58,475 bases of DNA from a virus (Duplodnaviria > Caudoviricetes). Numbering within the stretch: position 1 is the first letter of the stretch; each line of letters starts with the position of its first letter. The stretch lies in IMG/VR virus record IMGVR_UViG_3300009158_003990, positions 1 to 58,475 of that record; one strand, 5' to 3'. Position numbers and translations under genes: made by a program. Below, one piece after another: positions 5,986 to 44,795 of the stretch. The notes under the pieces are model-generated. The model did not search any database, was not told the DNA's origin, and saw only the letters and a list, made by a program, of their open reading frames with translations.

Positions 5986-7235
5986 TGCCATACTTTTCAA
6001 TTGTAACACCAACACATAACGCACAATTTCTTGCTAGACTTTCTAGATCTATAGAAAGGCAAACATTTAAAGATTTTGAATGGATAATTGTTCCTAATGG
6101 AAATGCCAACATTGATATTGAAACTTTGGCTTTTAAACCAAAAGTTATTTATTCTGGTTATCCAAATTCAAAATTAATTGGTCATTTTAAAAAAAGAGGG
6201 TGCTTTGCATCTCAAGGAACTATATTAGTAGAAGTAGATCATGATGATGAACTAACAGAAGATTGCTTGCAAGAATTATATAATGCATTTAATTCAGATG
6301 AGACAATTGATTTTGCATATTCAAATTGTGCAGAAATAAATGCTGATGGAGAACCATTTGTTTACTCTAACTATTTTGGCTGGAGAAATAGACCGCTTAA
6401 GTATTATGGAAGAGATCTTTTAGAACTAATATCATTCGATCCAAATCCAGCTTCATTTTCTAAGATTTGGTTTGCACCAAATCATGTGAGAGCTTGGAAA
6501 AAATCTTTCTATGATAAAATTGGTGGTCATAATGAAACAATGGAAGTTTTAGATGATCACGATATTCTTTGCAGAACATACATACAAGGCAAAGTTAAAC
6601 ATATAGATAAGTGTTTGTATATTTACTATAAGCACAAAGAAAATACCTGTTATGGTGAGAAGAATGCTTTTATTCAAGAAGAGACATTAAACATTCATGA
6701 TAAGTATATTTATGCATTAGTTGAGAAATGGTGCGACCTTAATAGTTTGCTTAAGATAGACCTTTGTGGAGGTTTTAATTCTCCAAAGGGGTACAAGTCA
6801 ATAGACATGCAAAACGCAGAAATTATACACGATTTAAACGATCCTTGGCCTTTTAAAGATAGCGAAGTAGGATTGATAAGGGCACATGATGCACTAGAAC
6901 ATTTAAGAGATCCAATTCATGTTATGAGAGAATCTTATAGGTGCTTGTGTCCAATGGGTTGGTTTTTAACTCAAACCCCATCAACAGATGGTAGAGGTGC
7001 TTTTCAAGATCCAACACACATATCTTTTTGGAACAGCAATAGCTTTTGGTATTACACTAAAGAAGAACAGGCAAAATATATCGGAACACCAGTAAGATTT
7101 CAAGGAAATAGAATTAAGAATTTTTATCCAACTGATTGGCACAAGACACATAATATACTTTATGTAAAAGCTGACCTTGTAAGACTTCCAGATAGAAATT
7201 TAAATGTAAGAGTTCCTGGAGAAGTCTCAATATGA
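5985..7235 (+). CDS. GT2 glycosyltransferase fused to class I methyltransferase domain
   Basis: SIVTPTHN, EVDHDD (DxD), DDHDILCR; C-terminal IDLCGG...AHDALEHL..P...E.YR.L.P.G. Confidence 0.85.
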   Translation: MPYFSIVTPTHNAQFLARLSRSIERQTFKDFEWIIVPNGNANIDIETLAFKPKVIYSGYPNSKLIGHFKKRGCFASQGTILVEVDHDDELTEDCLQELYNAFNSDETIDFAYSNCAEINADGEPFVYSNYFGWRNRPLKYYGRDLLELISFDPNPASFSKIWFAPNHVRAWKKSFYDKIGGHNETMEVLDDHDILCRTYIQGKVKHIDKCLYIYYKHKENTCYGEKNAFIQEETLNIHDKYIYALVEKWCDLNSLLKIDLCGGFNSPKGYKSIDMQNAEIIHDLNDPWPFKDSEVGLIRAHDALEHLRDPIHVMRESYRCLCPMGWFLTQTPSTDGRGAFQDPTHISFWNSNSFWYYTKEEQAKYIGTPVRFQGNRIKNFYPTDWHKTHNILYVKADLVRLPDRNLNVRVPGEVSI

Positions 7236-7444
7236 AAATAATAATTAAAAACACATCTGGAGATTTTTTTTGCAAACAACCAGAAGTTGGAATTACAAAA
7301 AATAAAAAAGATGCCCATATATTTTTTTGTTTAAATGATTATCATGCAAATTTAATTTTAGAAAAAACAAAGCAATTTATTTCAAATGATAATTTAAATC
7401 TTGAGATTATTGATAAAACAGAAATTAATTTAAATATAGAGTAA
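7232..7444 (+). CDS. hypothetical protein
   Basis: ATGA overlap with upstream gene. Confidence 0.5.
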   Translation: MKIIIKNTSGDFFCKQPEVGITKNKKDAHIFFCLNDYHANLILEKTKQFISNDNLNLEIIDKTEINLNIE

Positions 7445-7451
7445 AACATTT

Positions 7452-7640
7452 ATGAAAATTAAAAAGAATAGACAAAAAAAAGCTAGAAGAATTATGCTTC
7501 TTGCAGCAATAAGAATGTCTAAAGAAATTGGAATTAAATTTGATAGAATTAATATGGAAGAAACAAGAGATATTTATATGTGCAAGTATGGCGTAGATAG
7601 TTTGATTAGGCGATTTGATATAGCGAGTATTGTTGCTTGA
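7452..7640 (+). CDS. hypothetical protein
   Basis: Short basic ORF in operon. Confidence 0.5.
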   Translation: MKIKKNRQKKARRIMLLAAIRMSKEIGIKFDRINMEETRDIYMCKYGVDSLIRRFDIASIVA

Positions 7641-8033
7641 TTATTTCTTTGGTGTCTTTGTTTTAATTCCAGATTTTTTATATTCATTTCTCATAGATTG
7701 TTTGTCATCTATAGCAAACAGTATTTTTTCTTTAATGCTCTGTGCGTGTTTAATTTTTGATTCATTCTGTTCTTTTGAGCTATCTCCCAATCCATTCATC
7801 ATAAGTTTGTTGTATTTGACTCCAGCTTTTTTAAGTGCTTCTGTTGTGTCTTTCCTATTCGACTCAGGTCTGCCAGTTATAATGTATATTTTGTTTTCTT
7901 TTGACAACTCATTAACATAATCAATAACTTTTTTAATTGGGTATATACCATTACGCAATATAGTATTGTCAATATCAACAATTACTACGCTTGAATTAGA
8001 AAAATAAGCATGTATATCTTTTATTATATTCAC
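7641..8033 (-). CDS. HAD-family phosphatase (polynucleotide kinase 3'-phosphatase-like)
   Basis: DIDNT motif I, ITGRPE motif II, K, AIDD motif IV; probable GTG start at 8033 after AAGGAG. Confidence 0.8.
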   Translation of the reverse strand: MNIIKDIHAYFSNSSVVIVDIDNTILRNGIYPIKKVIDYVNELSKENKIYIITGRPESNRKDTTEALKKAGVKYNKLMMNGLGDSSKEQNESKIKHAQSIKEKILFAIDDKQSMRNEYKKSGIKTKTPKK

Positions 8034-8055
8034 ATTAATCTCCTTATTTAATAAG

Positions 8056-8070
8056 TACACCGTGGTGTAT
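8056..8070. promoter_or_regulatory. inverted GGTGTA repeat between divergent genes (putative back-to-back phage promoters)
   Basis: TACACC-GT-GGTGTA perfect inverted repeat; each half reads GGTGTA toward an AT-rich tract, an RBS and a gene. Confidence 0.5.
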
Positions 8071-8092
8071 TTTATATTAAAGGGAGCTAAAA

Positions 8093-8671
8093 ATGAAATT
8101 AAATATACTTACTGTTTTATTTAGAAAAGAATTTTTAGAAAAACAAATAGAATCAATCCCAAATAGAAATGATATAAATTGGATAATTTGTAAAACTAAA
8201 TCTTGGGGTGAATTGCCAAAAGAAATAGTTAATAATAATAAAAATTTTTCAACAATTGTTGCTGAAGTTGACTGCGATGAAATAAAAGAAAATTTTGTAG
8301 CAAAAATAAATTATGGAATGTCTTTTGTTGAAAACGGGTTTTTTTACTTGTTAGATGACGATAATATTGTTCACAAAAATATGATTTCTTTTTATGATAC
8401 GCATAAACAATACGATATGATAATTGGAAAACAAATATATAAAAATGGAAATTTGCGTATATATGCACACATACCAAAACAAGACCACATAGATATGGGC
8501 AATGTTATATGCACAACAAAAATTTTAAAAGATGTTGATTATTTTAATAATGTTGATAAATCAATGTCATCATATGATGGGCAGTTTTGGATGCAGTGTT
8601 ATTCAAAATTAAAAAAGGAAAATGTTTTTTTAACAGATGAAACTATATTTTATTATAATGGACTAAGATAA
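8093..8671 (+). CDS. GT2-like (GT-A) glycosyltransferase
   Basis: FYLLDDDN DxD motif; IDMG; DG.F. Confidence 0.7.
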   Translation: MKLNILTVLFRKEFLEKQIESIPNRNDINWIICKTKSWGELPKEIVNNNKNFSTIVAEVDCDEIKENFVAKINYGMSFVENGFFYLLDDDNIVHKNMISFYDTHKQYDMIIGKQIYKNGNLRIYAHIPKQDHIDMGNVICTTKILKDVDYFNNVDKSMSSYDGQFWMQCYSKLKKENVFLTDETIFYYNGLR

Positions 8672-9279
8672 TGGCTATAGGTGTTCATAAAATAACAGAA
8701 GATTTTGAATTATTGGTTTCTAAGTATACCAATGCTCCTTATTGTGTTGCTATTGATAATTGTAGCAATGCTTTATTTCTTGCTCTTTCATATGAAAACA
8801 TAAAAGATAAAAAAATAAGTATTCCATCTAGAACTTACCCATCTGTTCCATGTGAAATAATTCATGCTGATGGTAAAGTTGAATTTTATCAAGTTGAAGG
8901 AAAAATAAAAGGTGAATATCAACTACTAGGAACAAAAGTATTTGATAGTGCTTTAAGATTTACATCTAATATGTACAGAAAAGGATTTACTCAATGTCTT
9001 TCTTTTAGTGGTCCTCACAAGCATTTAAAGCTTGGCAAAGGAGGGATGATATTAACTGACGATATAGAAGCTTATAAATGGTATAAGAAAGCAAGATTTA
9101 GCGGAAGAAGCGAATGTAGCTATCACGATGATAATTTTACCATGACAGGTTGGAACTTTTACATGCTTCCAGAAATAGCTGCTAAAGGAATAGGTCTTAT
9201 GGCAGGAATAAAAGATCATAATGAAGATTTAGAATTATTGTATCCTGATTTAAGTAATTTTAAAGTATATAAAAAATAA
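8671..9279 (+). CDS. DegT/DnrJ/EryC1/StrS-family PLP sugar aminotransferase (short form)
   Basis: NCSNALFLAL, PSRTY, FDSA, LSFSGPHKHL..GKGGMILTD (PLP Lys), GWNFYM; only 202 aa. Confidence 0.8.
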   Translation: MAIGVHKITEDFELLVSKYTNAPYCVAIDNCSNALFLALSYENIKDKKISIPSRTYPSVPCEIIHADGKVEFYQVEGKIKGEYQLLGTKVFDSALRFTSNMYRKGFTQCLSFSGPHKHLKLGKGGMILTDDIEAYKWYKKARFSGRSECSYHDDNFTMTGWNFYMLPEIAAKGIGLMAGIKDHNEDLELLYPDLSNFKVYKK

Positions 9280-9281
9280 TT

Positions 9282-9842
9282 ATGTTTTTAAATAAAAACC
9301 AATTGGTTAAAATAAAATTTAAAAGCATTGGGAAAAATGTATTTATTTCCAATAAATGTTCTATATATTCTCCACATTTAATTGAAATTGGAGATAATGT
9401 AAGAATAGATGATTTTAGTATTTTGTCACCAGGAAGCAGCTTGAAAATTGGAAACTATGTACACATAGGATGCTATAGTTCTTTAATTGGAAAAGGTGAA
9501 TTTATATTAGAAGATTTTGTGGGTATTTCTGGAAGAGTATCTTTGTATAGTAGTTCTGATGATTATACTGGAATGTCAATGACAAATGTAATGATTCCAA
9601 ACGATTTTAAAAAAGTTTTAAGTGGAAAAATTCATATTAAAAAACATTCTATTATAGGAACTGGTTCAATATTATTGCCAAATATAACAATAGAAATGGG
9701 TTGTTCAATTTATGCACAAACACTTATACAATATGATTGTGAAGAATTTGGTGTTTATAGTGGAAATCCATCAAAGCTAATAGGAAAAAGATTAAAGGAG
9801 TTTTTAAAATATGAAAAAAGATTTATTGAAAATAATAAATGA
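9282..9842 (+). CDS. vioB: left-handed beta-helix N-acyltransferase, VioB/AntD-like
   Basis: FKSIGKNVFIS...IGDNVRIDDF..., SLIGKG, YSSSDDYTG, KHSIIGTGS.LLP closely follow the VioB/AntD pattern as I recall it. Confidence 0.75.
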   Translation: MFLNKNQLVKIKFKSIGKNVFISNKCSIYSPHLIEIGDNVRIDDFSILSPGSSLKIGNYVHIGCYSSLIGKGEFILEDFVGISGRVSLYSSSDDYTGMSMTNVMIPNDFKKVLSGKIHIKKHSIIGTGSILLPNITIEMGCSIYAQTLIQYDCEEFGVYSGNPSKLIGKRLKEFLKYEKRFIENNK

Positions 9843-10032
9843 AGTATTAAAAGAAAAAGAAATTAAACTATTAGAAATTTATCCAGAAATGAGTTTGAGA
9901 AATGATATTGGTTTTGATTCTCTCAATTTAGCATACTTAACTGTTTTAATTGAAGATAAATATGGAATTGACATTTTTGAAAATGGTGTGATTGATACTA
10001 TATCTGATATATTAAAAAAAATAAATGAATAA
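9811..10032 (+). CDS. acpP: acyl carrier protein
   Basis: 73 aa acidic protein with GFDSL phosphopantetheine motif and IEDKYGIDI. Confidence 0.9.
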   Translation: MKKDLLKIINEVLKEKEIKLLEIYPEMSLRNDIGFDSLNLAYLTVLIEDKYGIDIFENGVIDTISDILKKINE

Positions 10033-10978
10033 CTTTATATTAAACAATACTGATTCAATCATTGACTATGAAATACTAGGGTTTATTGAAAAAATAAAAA
10101 ATAAAGAAGACATTATTTTTACAACTTCTGGAACAACAGGAGAACCAAAAAAAATAATTCATAGCTATAAAACATTAGTTAAAAACATAAAAATTAAAGA
10201 TGAATTAAAAAATAGCGTTTGGGCATTGACATATGACTATACAAAAATGGCTGGATCACAAGTTATATTGCAGTCTTATTTAAACAAAGCAAAAATTGTT
10301 AACTTATTTAAAAAATCTTATGCAGAAACAATAAGTTTAATAAAAAAATATAATGTAACACACATATCTGCTACTCCTACTTTTTATAGATTATTAACAA
10401 ATAACATTTTTAAAAAAATAAAACAAGCAACAATAGGTGGTGAACCAGTAGATATTAATTTAATTAGTTATTTAAAAAAAATATTTCCTAATGCAAAAAT
10501 AACAAACATATACGCATCAACAGAGTTTGGAACATTGTTTAGTTCAAATGATTATTGTTTTACAATATCAGAAAAAAATGAGTCGTTTGTTAAAATAATA
10601 AAAGAAACAATTTTTATAAAAAACAATGATAAATGGTTTAATACAGAAGATAAAATTGAATGGGTAGAATCAAATAAGTTTAAAATAATTGGAAGAGATT
10701 CAAATATGATAAATGTAGGTGGAGTAAAAGTAAATCCAATAAAAATAGAATCTGCAATAAATAATTTACATTATGTTTTAAGCTCTTATGTTTATGGAAA
10801 AAGTAATTCAATAATGGGAACAATAGTAGTTGCAGATATTATTGTTAAAAAAAATGTAGATAAAAATATAATAAAAAAAGACTTAGAAAAAACTTTAAAT
10901 AGATATGAAATTCCTTTAAAAATAAATATAGTTGATAATATACATTTAACCTCTACTGGCAAGATAATAAGAAAATGA
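10025..10978 (+). CDS. ANL-family adenylate-forming enzyme (acyl-CoA/acyl-ACP synthetase), N-terminally compact
   Basis: FTTSGTTGEPK, YASTEFG, IIGR..MINVGG.KVNP, TSTGKI motifs. Confidence 0.85.
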   Translation: MNNFILNNTDSIIDYEILGFIEKIKNKEDIIFTTSGTTGEPKKIIHSYKTLVKNIKIKDELKNSVWALTYDYTKMAGSQVILQSYLNKAKIVNLFKKSYAETISLIKKYNVTHISATPTFYRLLTNNIFKKIKQATIGGEPVDINLISYLKKIFPNAKITNIYASTEFGTLFSSNDYCFTISEKNESFVKIIKETIFIKNNDKWFNTEDKIEWVESNKFKIIGRDSNMINVGGVKVNPIKIESAINNLHYVLSSYVYGKSNSIMGTIVVADIIVKKNVDKNIIKKDLEKTLNRYEIPLKINIVDNIHLTSTGKIIRK

Positions 10979-11697
10979 AAACAATTTTAGTTAGTGGAAT
11001 ATCGAAAGGATTAGGTTTAGTTTTATTGAAATCATTGTTATTGGATAACAATATTGTTTATGGAATAAGCAGAACTACTAATGATGAAATAGATGAATTA
11101 AAAAAAATATATCATAATAATTTTATTCATTTAATGCATGATTTAAGTTTATCTGAGTGTGTTGCAAAATTATCAACTCATATATTAAAAAATAAAATAA
11201 AATTTGATTGTTTTATTAACAATGCAGCGTTTGCATACGATGATATTATAACTAATGCAAGTTTAAGTAAATTAGAATACATGTTTAAAATAAATGTATT
11301 AAATCCAATTATGATTACAAAAATAATGCTTAGAAATTTTATTCTTAATAAAACAAAAGGAAACATAGTTCATATTTCAAGTATAAGTGTTCACACAGGA
11401 TATAAAGGACTGTCAATGTATGCAGCAACAAAAGGTGCTATCGAAGCATTTTCAAAAAATACAGCAAGAGAATGGGGAGAAATTGGAATTAGATCAAATT
11501 GTATTGTTGCTGGATTTATGGAAACAGAAATGAATAATAAATTAACTATTGATAAAAAAGAAAGAATATACAATAGAACATGTTTAAAAAAACAAACAAA
11601 TAAAAATTCAGTAGTTGATACTATTAAATTTTTAATTTCTAAAAATGCAAATTCAATTACTGGTCAAAATTTTTTTGTGGATTGTGGAACAATTTAA
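10975..11697 (+). CDS. fabG: SDR oxidoreductase, 3-oxoacyl-ACP reductase-like
   Basis: SGISKGLG, NNAA, ISS, YAATK (YxxxK), ITGQ..VDCG. Confidence 0.8.
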   Translation: MKTILVSGISKGLGLVLLKSLLLDNNIVYGISRTTNDEIDELKKIYHNNFIHLMHDLSLSECVAKLSTHILKNKIKFDCFINNAAFAYDDIITNASLSKLEYMFKINVLNPIMITKIMLRNFILNKTKGNIVHISSISVHTGYKGLSMYAATKGAIEAFSKNTAREWGEIGIRSNCIVAGFMETEMNNKLTIDKKERIYNRTCLKKQTNKNSVVDTIKFLISKNANSITGQNFFVDCGTI

Positions 11698-11708
11698 AAG
11701 GATTATAC

Positions 11709-12419
11709 ATGATACATGTTTACGGATTATGTTATAGAATACTAGACTATGCTAAAAAAACAGTTGATAGTTTAAGAGAAACTGCTTCTGAAGATTTTAA
11801 TTTAACATGTGTTGAAGGAAGATCATGCAACTCAGAATCTTTTTTAAGTTGGGGTAAACAATGTTTGGAAAATAAAAAAATTCAAAGATTTATAACATCA
11901 AGCACAAATTGTCGTGGGTATGGATTAAGTTGGGCTATTAAAAATTTTAAACCAGATGATTCAGAAGATTTTTTTATATTAACGGATTTAGATGTTTTAG
12001 TTCCAAAAAATATAGATTGGATAAAAGAAGTAAGGGAAACAATGAAAAACAATGTTATATCTGGATTTACTTTAAATAACAAGAATTATGTTTATCCAAA
12101 TTCTAAATGGAACGAAAACGAAAACATTTCAAAAAAATTATTTAGCTTAATAATTATGTCTGTTAAAACAAAAGAATACTTTAAAGTTTATGAAAAAAAA
12201 TTAGTTAATTTAATAGATTCAGATATTATTTCAAATATGTCTAATTATGGAAAAAGAGATTTAATTGATTCTAAGTTATATCATCTTGGATGGGATGCAT
12301 GGAAAGACGATAAGGAATATTGGGAAAATAAAAAAAATAAAAATAACTGGAACTTAAAAAAAGACTATGATGATACAGATGAAGAGCCAATATTTAAGGT
12401 ATACACAAATGACAACTAA
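11709..12419 (+). CDS. GT-A fold glycosyltransferase-like protein
   Basis: FILTDLDV DxD motif; YHLGW. Confidence 0.55.
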   Translation: MIHVYGLCYRILDYAKKTVDSLRETASEDFNLTCVEGRSCNSESFLSWGKQCLENKKIQRFITSSTNCRGYGLSWAIKNFKPDDSEDFFILTDLDVLVPKNIDWIKEVRETMKNNVISGFTLNNKNYVYPNSKWNENENISKKLFSLIIMSVKTKEYFKVYEKKLVNLIDSDIISNMSNYGKRDLIDSKLYHLGWDAWKDDKEYWENKKNKNNWNLKKDYDDTDEEPIFKVYTNDN

Positions 12420-13023
12420 AGAATCGTTGGATCTTGTAAAAAAAATAACTCAAAAAATACCAAGCTTTCATCATCACTACCATGTTCTTTATGACATATC
12501 AAATCTTATTAAAAAAGAAAATATTAATTATGTTGAAATAGGTGCGTATGCTGGAGCATCAGCAGCATTAATGCTTCATAATCCAAAAGTAAATGTTATT
12601 TCTATAGACATTGGAGATCCAATAAGACAAGAAGATGTACACAACAACATTTCTATTTTTTTTGATTGTAATAATAAAAAAAGATTTGATTATATAGAAG
12701 GAAGTTCTCATGCAGAAGAAACAAAAATTGAACTTTTAAATAAAATTAAAGAAATAGATATTCTTTTTATTGATGGAGATCACCCTTATAATTCAGTTAT
12801 AAAAGATTTTGAAATTTATTCTTGTTTAGTAAATAAAAATGGGTATATAGTTTTTGATGATTATCATTGCAATACATGCACTGAAGTAAAACCAGCCGTA
12901 AATTTTATAGTTTCAAATTTAAAAAAAGATGAATTTGAAGTTATAGGTAGTTTGCCAAACACATTTAATGCTTTTCCAGAAAGTTTTAAATCAAGCAATT
13001 GTTTTGTGTTAAGAAAAAAATAA
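12409..13023 (+). CDS. class I SAM methyltransferase (Methyltransf_24-like)
   Basis: VEIGAYAGAS, ILFIDGDH.Y..V..D, GYIVFDDY. Confidence 0.85.
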   Translation: MTTKESLDLVKKITQKIPSFHHHYHVLYDISNLIKKENINYVEIGAYAGASAALMLHNPKVNVISIDIGDPIRQEDVHNNISIFFDCNNKKRFDYIEGSSHAEETKIELLNKIKEIDILFIDGDHPYNSVIKDFEIYSCLVNKNGYIVFDDYHCNTCTEVKPAVNFIVSNLKKDEFEVIGSLPNTFNAFPESFKSSNCFVLRKK

Positions 13024-13050
13024 TTGATCTAGGAAATTAATGGGGAAATA

Positions 13051-13332
13051 ATGCAATATCTCTATGAGATTTGGTTAAAGATACATGATGAAAAAAGCAA
13101 ATATAAAGCATCTATAAATCTTAATGGAAGTTGTTGTATAGCTTTATGTGCTTCTTCAAATAAAGAAGCTATTGAAATTTTAGAAAACACATTTCTTTGT
13201 TGCGATACAAGACCTATTAAAAATAAAAGAAAAATAAAAGATTCGAGGTTGAAAGATGGTTGTTCTAAGTATATATTTCTCTTGCGTAAAGAAAGTATGA
13301 ATAGCTATAAACGAGATTGTGGTCATAAGTAA
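13051..13332 (+). CDS. hypothetical protein
   Basis: 93 aa ORF with GGGG RBS-like site. Confidence 0.45.
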   Translation: MQYLYEIWLKIHDEKSKYKASINLNGSCCIALCASSNKEAIEILENTFLCCDTRPIKNKRKIKDSRLKDGCSKYIFLLRKESMNSYKRDCGHK

Positions 13333-13620
13333 CTGGGTTATCAAATTCAATAACGGTTCTTTCCCAGTTCTTTCCCCGAAGCAACCACAACACCAGAACA
13401 CAGGTTCAAAGACTGCCATAGAGTAGCCAAACTCTTAACAGGTGGCACGAAAAGTTTAATTAAGAATCAACACTAAGATCGGAGTGACCCCTTCTCCGCT
13501 TAGACCTGATAGAGCAAAGCACAAAAATTCTTAATTGATGTCTTGTTTGGTAGAGTTTATAGCACACCGAAGGTAAACAAAGAACTCTGATGCTATGCTA
13601 TCAGGGTAAAGAAGGGGTAT
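13331..13620 (+). ncRNA. putative structured RNA / cis-regulatory leader
   Basis: Longest non-coding stretch in the window, with at least seven complementary segment pairs (see findings); family unassigned, strand assumed. Confidence 0.4.
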
Positions 13621-13625
13621 TTGTA

Positions 13626-13976
13626 ATGAGATTTAAAGCCGATATTGACCTTAAAAAATGGGGCAGTGAGGAAACAATCAAAGACCCATTAAGAGAAATA
13701 ATTTTGAAAATATTAAAAATGGATATTTTAAAAAAAACAAGCTGGCACTACCATTCTCAAAAAGAGTCTTATTTTTATATATTTTCTGGAGAGGTATCAA
13801 TACACATATCTGATGGCGATGACTTAAATTTGGCTCATATAGAGCTTCTAAAGCAAGGTGATTGTTTTTTTGTAGGTGCTAATAAAAGACACATGATAAC
13901 AGCTATGAAAGAAAGTGTATTACTTGAATCATCAAATTACGATGATCCAGTAGACAAAACTATAGTTCATTACTAG
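13626..13976 (+). CDS. cupin domain protein (mannose-6-P isomerase-like)
   Basis: KKWGSE, TSWHYH..KESYFYI.SG, GD.F.V....H.I.A....LLESS. Confidence 0.75.
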   Translation: MRFKADIDLKKWGSEETIKDPLREIILKILKMDILKKTSWHYHSQKESYFYIFSGEVSIHISDGDDLNLAHIELLKQGDCFFVGANKRHMITAMKESVLLESSNYDDPVDKTIVHY

Positions 13977-14238
13977 CAATATCACAAAAAATTTGAATAA
14001 CATTCTTTTCTATAAATCCACATGCGTTTAAACAATTTAAATTTTTACCAATCATCAATGTTATTTCTATAAACTCAGACTCAGATATATAACCAATACA
14101 ATAAGATTTTAATATTATTTTTTTAAAAAGTAAAAAGTCTTCTTTTGAAAAAATTACTGTATTAGAGTTGAGCAAATCAATTTTGTCTTTAAAATAAATC
14201 TTGAGTTTTCTTTTGCTTTCGCTTATTCTGTTTTTCAT
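13960..14238 (-). CDS. hypothetical protein
   Basis: Only sizeable ORF in the gap, divergent from GNAT gene. Confidence 0.45.
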   Translation of the reverse strand: MKNRISESKRKLKIYFKDKIDLLNSNTVIFSKEDFLLFKKIILKSYCIGYISESEFIEITLMIGKNLNCLNACGFIEKNVIQIFCDIASNEL

Positions 14239-14249
14239 GTTTCTATCTT

Positions 14250-14744
14250 ATGAGGTATGTTATGTCAAAAAAAACTAAGATTGATCCTACAATAAAACTT
14301 TTAATAAAAAGAAATCTTATAGAGGTTGTTGATATAGATAAAGCTTCTAGCTATATAAATGACCCCGATTTTGGATTAATCGAAAACGAATCTTCTTGGG
14401 ATTCATCTTCTTTTACAAGTTTTGTCAGAAAAAAGAACACATTCTCGTATGTTATTTATGAAAAAACTAAAATTGTTGGTTTTTTATTGATCGAATCTGA
14501 TCCAGATAGCACAAAAATTGAAAAACTAACGGTTCATCCTAAATATAGAAGAATGACTTTTGGTTCATTGCTATTAAATCACTTAATACAAAAGGCATTT
14601 AGTTCAAAAATAGTTGTTTATTGCAAAGAAAACGATAGTGACAGTATAGCTTTTTATAAAAACAAAAAATTTAAATCAAATCTTGTTAAGTCTCACTTTG
14701 GGAAAGATATAGATGCTGTAAGGTTTTCACTGGAGATAAAATGA
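14250..14744 (+). CDS. GNAT-family acetyltransferase (RimI-like)
   Basis: IVGFL, LTVHPKYRRMTFGS.LL, N..SIAFY...KF. Confidence 0.8.
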   Translation: MRYVMSKKTKIDPTIKLLIKRNLIEVVDIDKASSYINDPDFGLIENESSWDSSSFTSFVRKKNTFSYVIYEKTKIVGFLLIESDPDSTKIEKLTVHPKYRRMTFGSLLLNHLIQKAFSSKIVVYCKENDSDSIAFYKNKKFKSNLVKSHFGKDIDAVRFSLEIK

Positions 14745-14917
14745 AAGATAAAAATAAGCAATCTGTTAGTTGTCTTGGTTTTTGTGGTAAAAATTTTATG
14801 AGTATAGATCCTAAAACAAATAGAATTTGTAAAAAATGCAAAGAAAAGATGTATAATAAAAAGAACGAAATGGGCAAAAATTACTTTAATGAAAAAAAAA
14901 CAGAGATAAATGAATAA
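14741..14917 (+). CDS. small zinc-finger protein (not in ORF track)
   Basis: MKDKNKQSVSCLGFCGKNFMSIDPKTNRICKKCKEK...; ATGA overlap with upstream gene and overlap with downstream gene. Confidence 0.6.
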   Translation: MKDKNKQSVSCLGFCGKNFMSIDPKTNRICKKCKEKMYNKKNEMGKNYFNEKKTEINE

Positions 14918-15953
14918 ACCAAAAGTTGCACTTATAACACCATCATTAGGTATGGGTGGTGCAGAAAGATGGATAGTTACTCTTGCAAAATTCTTCAAAA
15001 GATTAGAACCTTATTTAATTTTAAATTTAAGTGGTCAAAGCGATTCAATTTTATTAGAAGAAGTTCCAAGCAAAACAAAAATTATATCTGGTCTTTATTT
15101 AAGTTCAGATAAAATCATAAATATTTTAAGCGAAGCAGATGCAATTATTTCTTGGTGTTTTAATTTAGACTTAAGATTAAAGGATAAATTAAAATGTCCA
15201 ACAATAGATGTTTCTCATAGTGACCCAACATGGGAAAACCACAAATCTTTGATTGATTACACATCAAAAAATTCAAAGTATCATGTTGGAGTAAGTAGGG
15301 TTGCTGCTTCAGCATATAAAAATAACAATTCAGATGTAATTTATAACGGAATAGATACAAAAAGACTTAAGGAAGTAAGAGGAAGAATTAAACAAAGAGA
15401 AGAATGGGATTGTGAAAATAACAAAGTAGTTATTTTTTTAAGCAGATTGTCAGAAGAAAAAAATCCTAAAATATTGCTAGATTGTTCTGATTTGTTTGAT
15501 GAAAGTTGGAAGTTTTTATTTGTTAATACTGGCTCTATAAAAAATTATTTTAATTCAATTAAAAAAAACAATATCAAAATTATAGAAAAAACAAAATATG
15601 TTGGAGATTATTATTCTGGTGCAGATGTAGTAGTTCTTCCTTCAGACATAGAAGGAATGCCATTAGTTTTATTAGAGTCTTGGTTTTGTGGTGTTCCTGT
15701 TGTAACGACTAGGTATGATTCTTATGTTGAATTAGAAAATATGCATGGGGAATTATGTTTGTCAACAGAAGTAAGACCAACAGCACTTGAATTTTCAAAT
15801 AAAATAAACCAAGCTTTTTATGAGGGCAGATGTTCTAAAAGAGTTATTCTTGCCAAAGATGTTGTGGAAAAAAATTATACTCATGAAACAATGATTAAAA
15901 ATTGGGAAGATTATGTGTTTTTAAAAATGAAAGAATGTAATGATACGCAATAA
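14910..15953 (+). CDS. GT4 glycosyltransferase
   Basis: GGAERW, VIYNGID, SRLSEEKN, PSDIEGMPLVLLESWFCGVPVV. Confidence 0.9.
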   Translation: MNKPKVALITPSLGMGGAERWIVTLAKFFKRLEPYLILNLSGQSDSILLEEVPSKTKIISGLYLSSDKIINILSEADAIISWCFNLDLRLKDKLKCPTIDVSHSDPTWENHKSLIDYTSKNSKYHVGVSRVAASAYKNNNSDVIYNGIDTKRLKEVRGRIKQREEWDCENNKVVIFLSRLSEEKNPKILLDCSDLFDESWKFLFVNTGSIKNYFNSIKKNNIKIIEKTKYVGDYYSGADVVVLPSDIEGMPLVLLESWFCGVPVVTTRYDSYVELENMHGELCLSTEVRPTALEFSNKINQAFYEGRCSKRVILAKDVVEKNYTHETMIKNWEDYVFLKMKECNDTQ

Positions 15954-16551
15954 CAAAAAAAAATGGATATATATAGGACCACCAAAAACTGGAAGCACAG
16001 CAGTATCTTATATACTGACAGATGGAAAATACAAAAAAAATTATATTGCCGAAAGTTTAAGTATTAATTTTGAAGGAAAAGAAATAAATGGTCAACATAC
16101 ACCTTGGCCTCCTAAAAAATTAAAAACTAAATACAACAATCATACAGTTTTTATAAGTGTAAGAAATCCTTTTTCTAGAATAGTTTCCCTTTATAATCAT
16201 TGGAAAAATGGAAAAAATTATGGTCGTGAATTATTATCAAAAGATAAAACGCTTGAAGAATTTATATATCTTGTTTTAAAAAAATCTCTTTCTAATAATG
16301 GATTTTTTCACACCACAATAACAGATTGGGTTTATAGATATGATTATTTTATAAAACAAGAAAATTTATACAATGATTTAAAAATGCTGAATATTCACTC
16401 TAATGATTTTATTATTCCTTTAATAAACGGAAAAATAAATTCGACAGATTACTGGAAAGAAGTACATAATAAAAAAACAATTGAGATGACAATTGAATGG
16501 GCAGAAAAAGATTTTTGTAATTTTGGATACAGTAAGGACATTAATGCTTAA
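15940..16551 (+). CDS. sulfotransferase family 2 protein
   Basis: 5'-PSB PPKTGSTAV and 3'-PB VRNPFSRIVSLY; DF..FGY. Confidence 0.8.
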   Translation: MIRNNKKKWIYIGPPKTGSTAVSYILTDGKYKKNYIAESLSINFEGKEINGQHTPWPPKKLKTKYNNHTVFISVRNPFSRIVSLYNHWKNGKNYGRELLSKDKTLEEFIYLVLKKSLSNNGFFHTTITDWVYRYDYFIKQENLYNDLKMLNIHSNDFIIPLINGKINSTDYWKEVHNKKTIEMTIEWAEKDFCNFGYSKDINA

Positions 16552-17260
16552 TTATTTTTTTGGATTTTTTGGTTCTGATCGTTCTGGTAAATGGTGGACT
16601 CTTCGTTGTCAGCACATTAAAGATAATCCATCATGCATAGGTTGTGGCACAAAAAAAGATGTACAAGTTCATCATAAAATACCAGTTAGTGTTGATGTAT
16701 CTAAAGAGTTGTGCAGAGATAACTTATGTACTCTTTGCAAATATTGCCATTTTGTTTTTGGGCATTTGCACAATTACAAAAATTATAATCCAGAAGTAAT
16801 TAGGGATTGCCAAGAGCATTACAAAAGAGTAAAACAATTTAAAGTTAAAACTTTTCAACGACCTATTTCTTTATGGAGGACTATTATGACTAAGTTTTTT
16901 GGTTCTATTGCTTTGGTTTTTTTGGGCTATTCAATTTATGTTAGCCATATGTATGTAGTAGAAACTAACAAAAATACAACAATTAAAGAGCTTTTTGCTG
17001 CTGAAAATAGAATCTTGAAAGATGAAATTTACGCAGAGCGAAGCAAGCCAACTTATGAAAATGGCTATAGAGATGCTATTTTAAGGGCTGGTTCACCAAG
17101 TGGTTCTGGTGCATATCGTGATGGTTGGGAATCTTGTGCAAAGCTTTATACAGATGGCTCATGGACAAGCGGATATCATACAGCACTAGAACAATTCGGG
17201 TGGAAGAATGAGTCTACAGCATTCAAAACCAATAAACCTCAAAGCGTATCTATGAAATAA
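16544..17260 (+). CDS. HNH endonuclease in frame with a membrane-anchored domain
   Basis: CIGC, VHHKIP, NLCTLCKYCH HNH domain; internal GGAGGA RBS + ATG at 16886 begins a hydrophobic segment. Confidence 0.7.
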   Translation: MLNYFFGFFGSDRSGKWWTLRCQHIKDNPSCIGCGTKKDVQVHHKIPVSVDVSKELCRDNLCTLCKYCHFVFGHLHNYKNYNPEVIRDCQEHYKRVKQFKVKTFQRPISLWRTIMTKFFGSIALVFLGYSIYVSHMYVVETNKNTTIKELFAAENRILKDEIYAERSKPTYENGYRDAILRAGSPSGSGAYRDGWESCAKLYTDGSWTSGYHTALEQFGWKNESTAFKTNKPQSVSMK

Positions 17261-25500: not shown

Positions 25501-26193
25501 TTAAATGTTTTTTTCTTTTAATTCTTTAAGTTTTTTTAAGTGACCGTTAGAGTATAATGCCTCTGTAAAATTTTCACCTATATTTTCTAAATAATATATT
25601 TCTTCTTCGCTAATGTTGTTAAAGTCTATATACCAAGGAATATGTCTACAAGCAAAATTTCCAGACAATCTCATGCTTTCATATCTATATCTTTTTATTT
25701 TTTGATCCATCGTAAATGTCATATCTGTAATTGCTCTATAAACATTTTCTTCTTCTGTTGGATACCAACATATGCTTTGATGATCAAATACTGTTGCTTT
25801 GTATGGATAATGATCTGGAATGTCATCCATTCTTAATGCCAGAGAAGCTTTTCTATCATATTTATTTATGCATTCTTTCATAATTTCTTGCCAATTGTAT
25901 GGCATATTAGGATTTAGTTCAAGATCTGCATCAGAGTAAATGTAATATTCACAATCTCTAATTTTATAAATATCAGAACCAAAAAACACCCAAGGACCAT
26001 GATTGGCATGTAATCTTAAAATTTTTATATCGTTTTCAATTTCTTTATACCAATCAAGAAGAGGAACATATGTAGATTTGTTATCTATAATTGTTATGTC
26101 TGAATTGCCATTTAATCTAAATAAATCTTCTACCATTTTCTTACATGTGGTTAACCTGTTTATATTTGTTAAAAATATAGGATAATTTACCAT
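25501..26193 (-). CDS. GT2-like glycosyltransferase
   Basis: IIDNKSTY, N.GPW, YIYSDAD DxD, RHIPWY. Confidence 0.7.
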   Translation of the reverse strand: MVNYPIFLTNINRLTTCKKMVEDLFRLNGNSDITIIDNKSTYVPLLDWYKEIENDIKILRLHANHGPWVFFGSDIYKIRDCEYYIYSDADLELNPNMPYNWQEIMKECINKYDRKASLALRMDDIPDHYPYKATVFDHQSICWYPTEEENVYRAITDMTFTMDQKIKRYRYESMRLSGNFACRHIPWYIDFNNISEEEIYYLENIGENFTEALYSNGHLKKLKELKEKNI

Positions 26194-26195
26194 TA

Positions 26196-27146
26196 TTATT
26201 CTCCAACTATTTTAAATTCTCCATTAACTATATCGTACACCTTATCTTTATGAATAAGCATTTTATATACAATTTGAGTTATGTCTAATTTTGTATTTCT
26301 AGTTTCTCCAATTCCACCTTTGTCACTAATTAAAAATTTAAATTGTTCTGTTAATACTGTTTTTTCTGGTGGATTAAAATGAAAGTAAGCATTAATGTAA
26401 CTCTCATCATTTACTGGTGGCTCATAATTAATCTTTTTATCTTCTATTTGATATCCTCTTAAAACTTTGCAAAAATCTATAACCTTTTCTTTTTTTCCAC
26501 CAAAAAAAGCACCATAATAATAAGTGTATTTTAATTTACTGTCTAAAGGAACATAAGATTTTCCAGTTTTATTTCTATCAAAACCTTTTCCATTAGATAA
26601 CCAAGAACGATTCCCATAATGTTCTCCACCAACAAGATCTCCCAAAAACCATGACTCATCAAAGTTTTTATCTATATTTGTATCTGCATCAAAATAATAA
26701 ATATAATCACAATTTTCTTTTTCAAGCTTTATTATATTTTTAAATTTTGAATTTGTTCCTTCATGCCAATGACTATGATTTTCTTTTATGTAAACAACAT
26801 TTGCATTTGGCAAATAATTTATTGGACTTAAGTCAGAAAACAAATAAAACTTTATATTAAATTCTCCTTTATAATAATGATTAAATTTTTTAACAAATCT
26901 TAGTCCAAGAGCAAAATATGAATTTGTGCAGACAATAACAATCGCTATTGTTTTTAATGAAAAACATTCATTTTCTGGAATTACTATTTCTTTTGTGTCA
27001 CTGTATATTATTAATTTTTTAATTTCATTGGGTTTTGTGTCGCCAAAAACATCGTTTGATGCTTTTACAAAACCAAAATTTTGAATTTCATATTTTAATA
27101 TTTCTGTTACATCTACATCTCCATATGTTGCTTTTTTAATGTTCAT
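26196..27146 (-). CDS. GT6-family glycosyltransferase with small N-terminal lectin-like domain
   Basis: YIYYFDAD, YYYGAFFGG, NDESYINAYF (cf. HDESHLNKYF in GT6); N-terminal ATYG..DVT...SN..FGD..P...KKL.I. Confidence 0.75.
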   Translation of the reverse strand: MNIKKATYGDVDVTEILKYEIQNFGFVKASNDVFGDTKPNEIKKLIIYSDTKEIVIPENECFSLKTIAIVIVCTNSYFALGLRFVKKFNHYYKGEFNIKFYLFSDLSPINYLPNANVVYIKENHSHWHEGTNSKFKNIIKLEKENCDYIYYFDADTNIDKNFDESWFLGDLVGGEHYGNRSWLSNGKGFDRNKTGKSYVPLDSKLKYTYYYGAFFGGKKEKVIDFCKVLRGYQIEDKKINYEPPVNDESYINAYFHFNPPEKTVLTEQFKFLISDKGGIGETRNTKLDITQIVYKMLIHKDKVYDIVNGEFKIVGE

Positions 27147-30465: not shown

Positions 30466-31338
30466 GTGTTAAGAAGAGGAAAAGTTAAAGCTTTTGGTGC
30501 TCCATTTAATACAAAATATTCAAGTTGTTCCAATCTTAAGCCAACTTTATTTGATTGGGATGCATATGAATCAGACATACATGTCTATATAGACTATGCA
30601 ATAGTTAACCAAGGACATTTGTCGCCAAAAACTATTTCAAGATTAAAAATTGGTTGGCTTTGTGAATCCAATGAAATTTATTTAGATCTTTATAATTATA
30701 TAAAAAATAATACTCAAGATGTTTTTTCCAAGTTCGATTATATTTTTACATCAGATAAAAGCCTTCTTTCTTTAGATAGAAGATTTAGATTTTGTTTTTC
30801 TTGTAGTAATATACCTTGGACACCTAAAGATTCTTGGGGCATATACCCAAAAACAAAAATATGTTCTATGATTTGTTCAGAGAAAAAAATGTGTTATGGT
30901 CATCTTTATAGACATCAAGTAGCACAAATATATATGGGCGATGTGGATATTTATGGTGGTGCTTTTGGATCTCCATTTACTGGTGAAAAATACGATGGCT
31001 TTTATAAAAAAGAAAATGCATTAAAAGACTACATGTTTTCAATAGTTATACAAAATAATTTTAAGCCTCATTTTTTTACAGAACATTTAACAGATTGTTT
31101 TGCATATGGAACTATACCTATATACTTAGGCGATCCAGAAATAAATAGATTTTTTAATGGTAATGGAATATTGAAATATCAAGGTGGATTTGATATTAAA
31201 ACTTTAAGTATAGATATGTATAATAGCAAGATAGATGCAATAAATGAAAATCTTGAAATAATAAAGAAAATGCCTATGTCTGATGATTATCTTTATCTTC
31301 AGTGTTTAGAAATACTTGGAGTAAATAAAAATGGATAA
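30466..31338 (+). CDS. GT10 (fucosyltransferase)-like glycosyltransferase
   Basis: K..ALKDYMFSIVIQN....FFTEHLTDCF..GTIPIYLG resembles the GT10 motif. Confidence 0.7.
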   Translation: MLRRGKVKAFGAPFNTKYSSCSNLKPTLFDWDAYESDIHVYIDYAIVNQGHLSPKTISRLKIGWLCESNEIYLDLYNYIKNNTQDVFSKFDYIFTSDKSLLSLDRRFRFCFSCSNIPWTPKDSWGIYPKTKICSMICSEKKMCYGHLYRHQVAQIYMGDVDIYGGAFGSPFTGEKYDGFYKKENALKDYMFSIVIQNNFKPHFFTEHLTDCFAYGTIPIYLGDPEINRFFNGNGILKYQGGFDIKTLSIDMYNSKIDAINENLEIIKKMPMSDDYLYLQCLEILGVNKNG

Positions 31339-33289: not shown

Positions 33290-33718
33290 ATGGCAAAAAA
33301 TAGATCAGATAGTAGCAAATACGAATCTAGGCATGGTGGTGGGTGGATTACTTCTGCTCAGTTTCTTGCAGAGGTTATGTGTGAAAGATACGCCAAAAAA
33401 AATGGCGAAGAATTAGTTTACAAGTTTTGGAATGTTGATTTTTGGAAAAAAGAATTTTTCAAACAACTTGCATTTGCTAAAAAATTGCTTCTTGTTTACG
33501 AACCCCATATTATTTCAAAGGCACTAAGGTCTAAAGAAGGCAAATCTGTTTTTTCTTTAGGTGCTCCTTGGTTAAAGAAAATAATTGAACTGGAACAAAG
33601 AAAGTTTAAATTAGCAGATACTAGCAAGGTTGTTGATACAACTGAGTTGCCAATTAGAAAACCATTCCAATCATCCAAATCTCTAATGAAAAAATTAAAG
33701 GACTTAGATAATGAGTGA
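33290..33718 (+). CDS. hypothetical protein
   Basis: ORF upstream of recA. Confidence 0.6.
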   Translation: MAKNRSDSSKYESRHGGGWITSAQFLAEVMCERYAKKNGEELVYKFWNVDFWKKEFFKQLAFAKKLLLVYEPHIISKALRSKEGKSVFSLGAPWLKKIIELEQRKFKLADTSKVVDTTELPIRKPFQSSKSLMKKLKDLDNE

Positions 33719-43896: not shown

Positions 43897-44167
43897 CAAC
43901 TTTGAGGAAATATCAATTATTACAAAACTAGTAAGTCAACAGATAGCACTATTGGATTCTTTGGCTGAATGCAATTCTTCAAAAAAAGAACTCATTAAAC
44001 AAGCAAATAAGATATTAAAATCTGTTGCAATATATCATGGTGGAAGTTTGTTTTTAAATAAAGAATTTTTAGATTCTGCTGAAGACTCTGATGTAGAATT
44101 AAATATAATTCAAGATAAAGAAGGTTCTGTAGAATTAAAAATTAAGGATGCAAATAATGAAGAGTAA
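43889..44167 (+). CDS. hypothetical protein between dnaE halves
   Basis: Overlaps both neighbours. Confidence 0.55.
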   Translation: MNDNFEEISIITKLVSQQIALLDSLAECNSSKKELIKQANKILKSVAIYHGGSLFLNKEFLDSAEDSDVELNIIQDKEGSVELKIKDANNEE

Positions 44168-44795
44168 TACAATTATTGTATTTGATTTTGAAACAGGATC
44201 TTTAGATACACAAACATGTGAGGTTATACAAGTTGCAGCAAAAGCAATAAATAGAAAAACCTTGCTTCCTATTCCAGATGCAGTTTTTAATAGTTTAATA
44301 AAGCCAAGAGACTTTAATAACTTGCAAGATTCTGCTTTGGCAGTAAATAAAAAAACAAAAGAAGAATTAGCTTTAGCACCAGAAATAAGCGTTGTTTGGA
44401 ATAGGCTTATTGATTTTATTTCAAGGTTTTCTATTGGCAAAAGCAATATAATGGCTCCAGTTCCAGCGGGTAAAAACATTCGTCATTTTGATATGCCAAT
44501 TTTTGAAAGAGTATGTCGTGAGCTTGGTTATACAGACAAAGATAAAAAACAAACATATTTTAATAATCGTAGCATGTTTGATTTAGATGAAATAATGCTT
44601 TTGTGGTTTGAAAATAGTGATGATATGCCAAATATGAAGATGGATACAATCCGAGATCATTTTGGTATGTCAAAAGCAAATGCTCATGATGCATTAGTTG
44701 ATGTTGAGCAAACTGGAGATTTAATTATCCATTTTTTAAAATTGCATAGATCAATATACCCAAAAGTAAAATTTAAAGACTCATTCAAGAAATAA
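44157..44795 (+). CDS. DEDDh 3'-5' exonuclease (DnaQ/epsilon-like)
   Basis: ExoI VFDFETG, ExoII GKNI..FD, ExoIII AHDALVDV. Confidence 0.88.
   Translation: MKSNTIIVFDFETGSLDTQTCEVIQVAAKAINRKTLLPIPDAVFNSLIKPRDFNNLQDSALAVNKKTKEELALAPEISVVWNRLIDFISRFSIGKSNIMAPVPAGKNIRHFDMPIFERVCRELGYTDKDKKQTYFNNRSMFDLDEIMLLWFENSDDMPNMKMDTIRDHFGMSKANAHDALVDVEQTGDLIIHFLKLHRSIYPKVKFKDSFKK

Follow-up and report, generated by a model that had tools for sequence, protein, structure and literature searches.

A block of eight genes lies at positions 8093 to 13023 of a viral DNA record from IMG/VR (IMGVR_UViG_3300009158_003990). Together, these genes may form a route, fed by an acyl carrier protein (ACP), by which a phage makes an N-acylated, O-methylated amino sugar and transfers it to an acceptor. 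The window analyzed here is the whole record, a linear stretch of 58,475 bp with a CheckV completeness of about 35%. Its GC content is 29.6%, and the + strand carries nearly all of its open reading frames (ORFs). The eight ORFs of the block are on the + strand and are separated by junctions of -32 to +11 nt if gene 7 is started at ATG 11709 and gene 8 at ATG 12409. This layout agrees with the contiguous, tightly coupled run that a preliminary description of the DNA had reported. Clear Pfam domains were found in six of the eight proteins. The features, including the segment that is absent from the complete genome of a sister phage (G001), are as follows:

8062..13146 (no strand): accessory island, in the window, absent from the complete sister genome G001
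8093..8671 (+): gene 1, 192-aa protein conserved among relatives, LDDD motif, candidate GT-A glycosyltransferase (unconfirmed); language-model look-alikes and motif
8671..9279 (+): gene 2, mini-DegT, 202 aa, predicted core of a pyridoxal 5'-phosphate (PLP) sugar aminotransferase; PF01041, AlphaFold2 (AF2) model, Foldseek
9282..9842 (+): gene 3, predicted AntD-type sugar N-acyltransferase of the left-handed β-helix (LbH) class, 186 aa; 3vbi, Hexapep
9811..10032 (+): gene 4, ACP, 73 aa, Ser37 in GFDSL; PF00550 (PP-binding)
10025..10978 (+): gene 5, minimal ANL adenylating enzyme, 317 aa, presumed acid-ACP ligase; PF00501, PF13193
10975..11697 (+): gene 6, FabG-like classical short-chain dehydrogenase/reductase (SDR), 240 aa, presumed ketoacyl reductase; adh_short_C2, TIGR01830, phrog_3142
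11709..12419 (+): gene 7, GT2 glycosyltransferase (GT-A fold), 236 aa from ATG 11709, ORF opening at TTG 11682; family profile
12409..13023 (+): gene 8, class I S-adenosylmethionine methyltransferase of the CmcI/TylF O-methyltransferase type; Methyltransf_24, RMNT_CmcI, TylF

Proteins encoded by the block

The preliminary description had named a DegT aminotransferase, an ACP, an ANL enzyme, a FabG-like SDR and a methyltransferase, and Pfam searches returned the same families. The ACP matches PF00550 (E = 3.4e-7) and 13 NCBIfam families, nearly all of which are ACP models, and the serine of its DSL motif is present as Ser37. The ACP gene and the LbH gene overlap by 32 nt. The LbH protein had been called VioB/AntD-like. 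The AntD half of this call is well founded, since residues 2-183 of 186 align with residues 21-201 of the AntD chain (PDB 3vbi/3vbn) at E = 2.6e-40; 3vbn is identified as Bacillus cereus AntD in PMC6031040. The protein also carries Hexapep repeats (E = 5.2e-12). The VioB half was dropped, as the match to the NeuD/PglB/VioB family model TIGR03570 is confined to residues 112-165 (profile positions 149-202 of 202, a stretch of 54), leaves out the N-terminal nucleotide-binding domain and scores 46.4 bits, compared with a cut-off of 160.8. By homology, the LbH protein is a full-length AntD relative, of AntD type and not of NeuD/PglB/VioB type.

The aminotransferase is strongly shortened. It has 202 aa compared with about 379 aa for a full-length protein, and its match to DegT_DnrJ_EryC1 (PF01041; E = 2.4e-12, score 47.2 bits, cut-off 19.8) covers only two partial stretches. 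It is missing 40 aa at the N-terminus, 56 aa in the interior and the C-terminal domain (about 110 aa), and does not have the two-domain architecture of the DegT family (about 360-400 aa). When the protein is aligned with two full-length DegTs, Lys117 (within SFSGPHK) and Asp92 fall in the conserved Lys and Asp columns; we take these residues to be the Schiff-base lysine and the aspartate at the pyridine nitrogen. Both residues are among the 49 invariant columns in an alignment of 29 sequences. The AF2 model is confident (pLDDT 90.2, pTM 0.88), and almost all of the Foldseek matches listed for it are sugar aminotransferases, with ColD, a related dehydratase, also among them. The best match is GDP-perosamine synthase (3bn1; E = 3e-8, TMq 0.65), and TMt values range from 0.32 to 0.40. 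Mini-DegT belongs to a family of proteins of roughly 209 aa with more than 7,933 clusters, found on contigs of up to 339 kb. All 120 of the relatives listed contain SFx(2-4)K and have lengths of 202-219 aa. The relatives are labeled as plain dTDP-4-amino-4,6-dideoxygalactose transaminases in the sources, and the family is far commoner than the ACP-ANL-SDR part of the block (840 ANL relatives, on contigs of up to 166,777 bp).

The ANL protein is shortened as well. It matches AMP-binding (PF00501; E = 1e-18) and AMP-binding_C (PF13193; E = 4.9e-8), and contains TSGTTGEPK at residue 34, YASTE at 163, T207 and D209, GRDSNMIN at 223 and a terminal Lys313. In a 16-sequence alignment, the core motifs A3 (the P-loop), A5, A7, A8 and the A10 lysine fall in invariant or nearly invariant columns. 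Among 120 listed relatives (clustered at 90%), A5 and A8 are present in all and A3 in 112, and 101 of them are 314-323 aa long. The 317 aa of this protein compare with a median of 407 aa in bacteria, 343-368 aa in other viruses and about 500 aa for solved ANL structures. The complete N-terminal domain, which places about 150-190 residues before the P-loop, is lacking, as the P-loop is already reached at residue 34. In Pfam, the match likewise begins at profile position 166 of 384, and the protein aligns to approximately residues 200-547 of a 570-aa ligase. The AF2 model (pLDDT 85.0) superposes on full-length ANL enzymes. Its best Foldseek match is oxalyl-CoA synthetase (5ie2; E = 2.8e-21), with TMt values of 0.25-0.48. 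A tblastn search of cultured phages gave six matches at 24-27% identity, none of which is this ANL.

Since mini-DegT and the ANL are so strongly shortened, their activity cannot be assumed. As judged from the retained motifs, the confident models and the folds they match, both look competent. Both are naturally occurring, pared-down forms of enzyme folds that are widely used. If they are active, this would matter for enzyme engineering and for annotation, where such proteins are now labeled as ordinary transaminases or acyl-CoA synthetases.

The SDR matches adh_short_C2 (E = 1.6e-35) and the FabG-like phrog_3142 (E = 3.5e-40), and has the glycine motif and the Ser-Tyr-Lys residues of its class (SGISKGLG at residue 7, NNAA at 82, SSIS at 135 and YAATK at 149). 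It also matches the 3-oxoacyl-ACP reductase model TIGR01830 (E = 3.2e-36), but with 125 bits against an equivalog cut-off of 297.75; therefore, it is not counted as an equivalog. The methyltransferase matches Methyltransf_24 (E = 3.9e-12), RMNT_CmcI (E = 2.7e-7) and TylF (E = 0.002). Its ORF opens at 12367, relatives align from residue 15-17, and the start taken is ATG 12409.

Two GT-A glycosyltransferases had been proposed, and only the second is supported. Gene 7 itself has no Pfam match. A profile of 40 relatives matches two GT-A chains, 8vh7 and 1h7l (heparosan synthase B and SpsA), both at E = 3.7e-4, and 11 of the 40 relatives match PF00535 (best E = 6.1e-7); these two results support its assignment to GT2. 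Asp95 in its TDLD motif is invariant. The call for gene 1 was not confirmed. This protein has no sequence match in Pfam, PHROGs or PDB, and none of 21 relatives carries a Pfam domain. A 22-sequence profile gave a single PDB match, a general stress protein at E = 0.4, and comparison with one GT2 of the window by hhalign gave a probability of 0.1. A GT-A fold is possible, and two observations point that way: 17 of 30 language-model look-alikes fall in viral GT2 clusters, and LDDD at residues 87-90 is invariant among the relatives.

An accessory island in a freshwater phage

The window encodes ribonucleotide reductase, a DnaB-type helicase, primase, an exonuclease, a RecA-like protein, a dNMP kinase, ThyX, peptide deformylase and PhoH. 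No structural phage gene was found in it. Relatives of its DnaE were found on 38 viral contigs. One of these contigs is the complete genome of a sister phage, G001. It measures 141,809 bp, is bounded by direct terminal repeats, encodes a large terminase and has a DnaE that is 74% identical. By tblastn, the window ORFs between 3919 and 30393 are collinear with 19.5 kb of G001, at protein identities of 45-94%. The preliminary description had allowed that the contig might be bacterial or chimeric. This does not apply, because the flanks of the block are collinear with a viral genome that is complete and shows both terminal repeats and a terminase. The record, a fragment of a phage genome, is not chimeric, and the carrier is a large lytic-type freshwater phage.

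DNA homology to G001 ends at 8061 and resumes at 13147, with 160 bp of G001 in place of 5,085 bp of the window. In G001, the HAD phosphatase gene (7641-8060, - strand) adjoins the small ORF at 13051. Since the complete relative is collinear over this region yet lacks exactly this block, these 4.9 kb are an accessory island, and probably a portable one. Neither the ANL nor mini-DegT occurs in any of five sister records, one of which is complete and four of which are 51-78% complete. Only AT-rich chance matches, and no direct or inverted flanking repeats, were found at the ends of the island. A GC scan, which had been suggested as a sign of acquisition, placed the lowest 1-kb bin of the window inside the island (10001-11000, 21.5% compared with 29.6% overall); the island genes range from 19.8% to 29.9%. 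A scan of 7000-14500 for promoters and terminators was uninformative, with fewer promoter-like sites than in shuffled sequences and one terminator-like site compared with 1.4 expected.

Two other glycan islets of the window are also missing from G001. The first (14910-16551) consists of a GT4 and a sulfotransferase gene. The second (25501-27146) holds a GT6-family gene and a gene for a 230-aa protein without a known family; it is the only - strand block, and the GC skew is reversed there.

Near-identical island DNA was found in freshwater, lake and estuary metagenomes from several studies, dated 2017-2025. The contigs of one estuary run cover all 30 bins of the island, and a 1,664-nt contig from another study spans its left junction. 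In metagenomes searched at 85% likeness, joints inside the island in DNA runs are single-contig events. Metatranscriptome contigs from two runs of two studies also match. Those of one run (X18) match 9553-9979, 10996-11149 and 11740-12061 with 2-7 differences, and those of the other (X20), which is maybe from the same campaign as the source record, match 8317-8509 and 9959-10112 with no differences. Since these are contigs and DNA carry-over is possible, they do not prove transcription of the island.

The cassette in other viruses and in bacteria

A search of viral contigs for the block had been proposed. A single-protein ANL query found no relative, and an alignment-based query found 10 loci, each on its own contig (two of them, L006 and L007, near-identical, and one on a 334-kb contig). 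The core of DegT, LbH, ACP, ANL and SDR genes recurs in these loci. ACP, ANL and SDR are present in all 10, mini-DegT in nine, an AntD-like LbH in seven and a methyltransferase, placed after the SDR, in three. The LbH gene is directly upstream of the ACP gene in seven of the 10. Genes flanking the cassettes are otherwise unrelated to the window. This, together with the placement of one locus on a 334-kb contig, indicates that the cassette moves between different phages. In a quick, midpoint-rooted tree, nine of the 10 viral ANLs form one clade (SH-aLRT 98) among mostly FCB-group bacteria (Bacteroidota, Ignavibacteriota and others), and the tenth, from locus L011, is a long branch beside it.

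The L011 cassette has the order RmlA, RmlD-like, full-length DegT (379 aa), LbH, ACP, AcpS, ANL, SDR, GT2 and RmlB; after these come PhoH and a gene resembling sigma factors. Its AcpS-type phosphopantetheinyl transferase (PPTase; 6475-6861, PF01648, E = 3.3e-20) lies between the ACP and the ANL, and we count this gene arrangement as a likely sign that the carrier is used as a carrier. In the other nine viral loci, no AcpS, RmlA, FabH or GDP-mannose dehydratase was found within the DNA fetched, and FabH was found in none of the 10. In L003 and L006, the epimerase-like genes close to the cassette resemble UDP-, GDP- and dTDP-sugar enzymes equally and do not settle the nucleotide. After the SDR in the loci where an AntD-like LbH is missing, there is a 611-aa ORF (L005:11721-13556) or a pair of 257 and 361 aa (L006:11671-13533). 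These ORFs may encode an alternative acyltransferase.

The same triad was surveyed in the best 80 of at least 577 bacterial stretches that encode an ANL relative. The ACP gene lies about 500 bp upstream of the ANL gene in 78 of the 80 loci, and the SDR gene is directly downstream in 79. Neighboring genes include full-length DegT (40 loci), two LbH families (35 and 26; any LbH, 53), NDP-hexose 4,6-dehydratase (25), GT2 (21), RmlA (16), UDP-GlcNAc 2-epimerase (15), NeuB (14) and β-ketoacyl-ACP synthase III (KAS III or FabH; 14). The conserved order and recurrent neighbors indicate that the ACP-ANL-SDR triad is an established module in loci for amino sugars and nonulosonates. The bacteria that carry it belong for the most part to Bacteroidota and further phyla of the FCB group, to Verrucomicrobiota and to Bacillota. 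The bacterial loci differ from the phage block in the length of the ANL (median 407 compared with 317 aa) and in their partner DegT, which is full length (379 aa). The phage island offers a compact handle on a triad that is widespread in the glycan and nonulosonate loci of Bacteroidota, Verrucomicrobiota and Bacillota. In the literature searched, the trio was met with once: an ACP, a 3-oxoacyl-ACP reductase and an AMP-dependent synthetase are listed, without further treatment, in flagellin glycosylation islands of Aeromonas (PMC7874193). By annotation, these are the same three genes as the phage triad, and the same order was seen in our 80 bacterial loci.

The preliminary description had called a carrier-protein pathway unusual in a phage. 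This was overstated, as PHROGs already contains phage ACP and FabG families and the cassette occurs in 10 viral contigs. A 2026 paper also describes ACP modules in Flavobacterium jumbophages. Among cultured phages, mini-DegT was found only in Flavobacterium phage immuto (four records) and in one Synechococcus phage; two uncultured huge phages carry it as well. Of the cultured groups, that of Flavobacterium phage vB_FspM_immuto (NC_055915.1) alone has a mini-DegT that is close (59.8% identity, 214 aa). There, the gene is annotated as dTDP-4-amino-4,6-dideoxygalactose transaminase and is followed by an LbH-type 'pilin glycosylation protein'. In contrast to the window, immuto has no ACP, ANL or SDR, and its LbH is not AntD-like at 1e-6. 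Immuto was rejected as a relative of the window phage because its genome gave no match to the window DnaE.

A candidate pathway and its alternatives

We favor the reading, with a probability of about 0.6, that the eight-gene island encodes an ACP-fed route to an N-acyl, O-methyl amino sugar, followed by glycosyl transfer. It draws on the gene content, homologies, motifs, confident folds, island status and recurrence described above. The closest parallel is the viosamine island of Pseudomonas syringae pv. tabaci. There, vioA, vioB, acp, vioS, vioR, vioM and vioT produce dTDP-N-(3-hydroxy-1-oxobutyl)-2-O-methylviosamine for flagellin, and the pathway is proven genetically by mutants of vioA, vioB, vioR, vioM and vioT (PMC3927599). 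By the parts list given there, both islands have an aminotransferase, an N-acyltransferase, a private ACP, an SDR of the 3-oxoacyl-ACP reductase type, a methyltransferase and a dedicated glycosyltransferase. The likeness to this cluster that the preliminary description had drawn thus holds component for component, except that an ANL stands where P. syringae has the KAS III enzyme VioS. The phage version differs further in its half-size aminotransferase, its AntD-type acyltransferase and its viral carrier.

Because the parts map one to one on the viosamine island, save for the ANL in place of KAS III, a scheme of six steps is proposed, each of them conditional. First, mini-DegT would aminate a host- or phage-made NDP-4-keto-6-deoxyhexose, which may be dTDP-4-keto-6-deoxyglucose or GDP-4-keto-6-deoxymannose. 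In parallel, the ANL would adenylate a short oxo- or hydroxy-acid and load it onto the island ACP, which a host PPTase would first have to convert to the holo form. Third, the FabG-like SDR would reduce the acyl group, either while the ACP still carries it or once it has been transferred. Our best guess for the product is a 3-hydroxybutanoyl-type group, by the precedent of viosamine; 3-hydroxybutanoyl is frequent in bacterial glycans. Fourth, the AntD-type LbH enzyme would transfer the acyl group to the amino group of the sugar. The cassette order and gene overlap suggest acyl-ACP rather than acyl-CoA as its donor. Fifth, the methyltransferase would O-methylate the sugar. Sixth, the GT2, and perhaps also the 192-aa protein, would transfer the sugar to an acceptor. 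The preliminary description had arrived at an ACP-fed, N-acylated amino sugar as well. That proposal fits every comparative result, including the AntD homology, the conserved triad, the AcpS of L011, the match to the viosamine island and the phage origin of the contig, and its chemistry is one that we infer.

The nucleotide could be of either kind. By analogy with AntD and L011, dTDP is suggested. GDP is suggested by the top fold match of mini-DegT and by a GDP-mannose 4,6-dehydratase in the sister phages G001 (L137:1489-2538) and G002 (PDB 1n7g, E = 3.5e-78), whose gene precedes that of the large terminase by about 1 kb. With this dehydratase in a complete relative, GDP-perosamine is as plausible a substrate as dTDP-viosamine. 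In the window, PPTase, NDP-sugar dehydratase or epimerase and RmlA-type transferase were searched for and not found, and FabH was not seen among the scanned ORFs of at least 250 aa. The preliminary description had noted that PPTase, FabH and NDP-sugar 4,6-dehydratase are lacking, and it was right within this scope.

The window holds at least 10 further glycosyltransferase-like genes besides those of the island, as well as a GNAT, a sulfotransferase and a cupin. These glycosyltransferases suggest a glycan built by the phage, with virion proteins or the host envelope as candidate acceptors. No polyprenyl-phosphate transferase or flippase turned up in general Pfam scans of the window ORFs, in which no search aimed at them was made. 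A MobA/IspD-like nucleotidyltransferase gene (53189-53866) lies among the glycosyltransferase genes, and the phage may therefore activate at least one sugar or polyol itself. The gene at 30466-31338 has a weak GT10 (fucosyltransferase-like) match (E = 1.7e-4).

Other known systems share parts of the proposed route. The phage LbH is homologous end to end to AntD of the anthrose pathway of B. cereus and Bacillus anthracis (PDB 3vbi-3vbp). Anthrose is an N-(hydroxyacyl), O-methyl 4-amino-4,6-dideoxyhexose, the class to which we liken the phage product. We know of no ACP, ANL or FabG-like SDR in the ant operon. In Vibrio cholerae O1, the tetronate gene set includes an ACP and the ANL-type WbeL, and the reductive steps are carried out by other enzyme families. 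The perosamine N-tetronate of this bacterium is described as a 4-amino-4,6-dideoxyhexose that is N-acylated with a short hydroxy-acid by dedicated genes, among them an ATP-binding ligase, wbeL (PMC3441752). WbeL has 471 aa compared with 317 aa for the phage ANL, and the two are likened by their described roles. Perosamine is the sugar that would follow from the sister phage GDP-mannose dehydratase. Giant viruses are the nearest viral comparison. To our knowledge, their sugar is N-acetylated, and their pathways have no carrier protein or adenylating enzyme and use enzymes of full size. Virus-encoded pathways for viosamine and other rare sugars are described for Mimivirus and Megavirinae (PMC9614988, PMC10117803). 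By these accounts, giant viruses resemble the phage in having their own amino-sugar pathway and many glycosyltransferases for their own glycans, and their hosts are eukaryotic. Thus, carrier-fed N-acyl amino-sugar pathways in bacteria (viosamine, tetronate, anthrose) and rare-sugar pathways in giant viruses are already known. New, as far as gene predictions reach, are the two minimal enzymes, the exchange of a ketosynthase for an ANL and the location of a carrier-fed pathway on a delimited island of a phage.

A broader form of the ACP-fed reading is tentative, and we hold it to be possible rather than probable. In it, the island would be a self-sufficient, mobile 'sugar-decoration cartridge' of aquatic phages, in which minimal enzymes work together, the ANL replaces the ketosynthase and an N-(3-hydroxyacyl)-O-methyl-4-amino-4,6-dideoxyhexose caps a virion glycan. 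If so, a 202-aa aminotransferase about half the size of any characterized DegT enzyme would function without the C-terminal domain, and a 317-aa ANL would work without the N-terminal subdomain, loading a short oxo-acid directly onto a phage ACP. Gain and loss of the island between sister phages would change the surface chemistry of the particle. On the ACP-fed reading itself, autonomous synthesis of rare acylated amino sugars of the bacterial type would extend from giant eukaryotic viruses to ordinary large phages, on a small swappable island that one close relative has and another lacks.

Several observations weigh against the ACP-fed route. Mini-DegT, without its whole C-terminal domain and the internal 56 aa, could be inactive or repurposed, and so could the ANL, which lacks everything before the P-loop. 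PPTase and RmlA were also not found in the five sister records, and RmlA, RmlB and FabH were not found in the window. The searched literature, which lacked most subscription journals, contained no characterized triad enzyme and no phage version of the triad. Further points of this kind concern the acyl donor and the acid, and are given with the alternatives.

One such alternative is that two functions share the island: the LbH enzyme would use host acyl-CoA (acetyl- or hydroxybutyryl-CoA), and the triad would acylate another acceptor, giving an O-acyl group on a glycan, a lipid or a small molecule. AntD reportedly uses acyl-CoA, and the LbH enzyme might therefore ignore the ACP. The triad also occurs without a detectable LbH within 8 kb in 27 of the 80 bacterial loci, and without an AntD-like LbH in three of the 10 viral loci (L005-L007, two of them near-identical). 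We consider this alternative unlikely, given the 32-nt overlap of the LbH and ACP genes, their adjacency in seven of 10 viral loci, the presence of an LbH in 53 of the 80 bacterial loci and the lack of any other acyltransferase in the island.

It is about equally improbable that mini-DegT is not an aminotransferase. It would then be a remnant without activity, a scaffold that binds PLP or a different PLP enzyme, and the island would only decorate an amino sugar of the host. The missing N-terminus, internal segment and C-terminal domain (202 compared with 379 aa) and the TMt of about 0.38 are in keeping with this, as is the failure of a full-length viral DegT to match mini-DegT at 1e-4 by tblastn. 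It is harder to reconcile with a family of this size that is constant in length, keeps SFx(2-4)K in all 120 listed relatives and has 49 invariant columns including Lys117 and Asp92. The model is confident, and mini-DegT takes the position of the full-length DegT in the cassette.

Less likely again is that the ANL is a DltA-like ligase that loads an amino acid onto the carrier, so that the sugar receives an N-aminoacyl group of the alanyl, seryl or glycyl type and the SDR acts elsewhere. The Foldseek neighbors of the ANL (oxalyl-, malonyl- and succinylbenzoyl-CoA ligases and DltA) do not discriminate the acid, which counts against the ACP-fed reading. In favor of a DltA-like ligase, the matches by sequence and fold include DltA and adenylation domains of nonribosomal peptide synthetases, and the amino acid adenylation model TIGR01733 matches at E = 4e-17. 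The best NCBIfam and PDB matches, however, are acyl-, oxalyl- and succinylbenzoyl-CoA ligases, and in 79 of 80 bacterial loci the gene after the ANL encodes a FabG-like reductase, for which an oxo- or hydroxy-acid is a better fit than an amino acid. Finally, a bacterial or chimeric contig with a bacterial polysaccharide locus is very improbable and largely refuted: the closest cellular homologs are all in bacterial glycan loci and the window lacks structural phage genes, but both flanks are collinear with the complete viral genome, a contig from another study spans the left junction and nine of 10 viral ANLs form their own clade.

The remaining observations concern genes elsewhere in the window. 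The DnaE-type DNA polymerase III alpha is split, with the PHP and NTPase domains at 41980-43896 and the finger, HhH and OB domains at 44800-46425. Between the halves lie a gene for a DnaQ-like RNase_T exonuclease (44148-44795) and a 92-aa ORF. In a 673-aa protein encoded at 33711-35732, a P-loop region at the N-terminus, with matches to PHROGs of the terminase, DnaC and primase types, is joined to a C-terminal RecA/UvsX-like domain. The coordinates 2026-2925, 16493-17260 and 56547-57323 are given jointly for three genes. One encodes a DNA methyltransferase of the C5 cytosine type (PF00145, E = 1.8e-53), and the other two resemble homing endonuclease genes, of the HNH and the NUMOD3 type.

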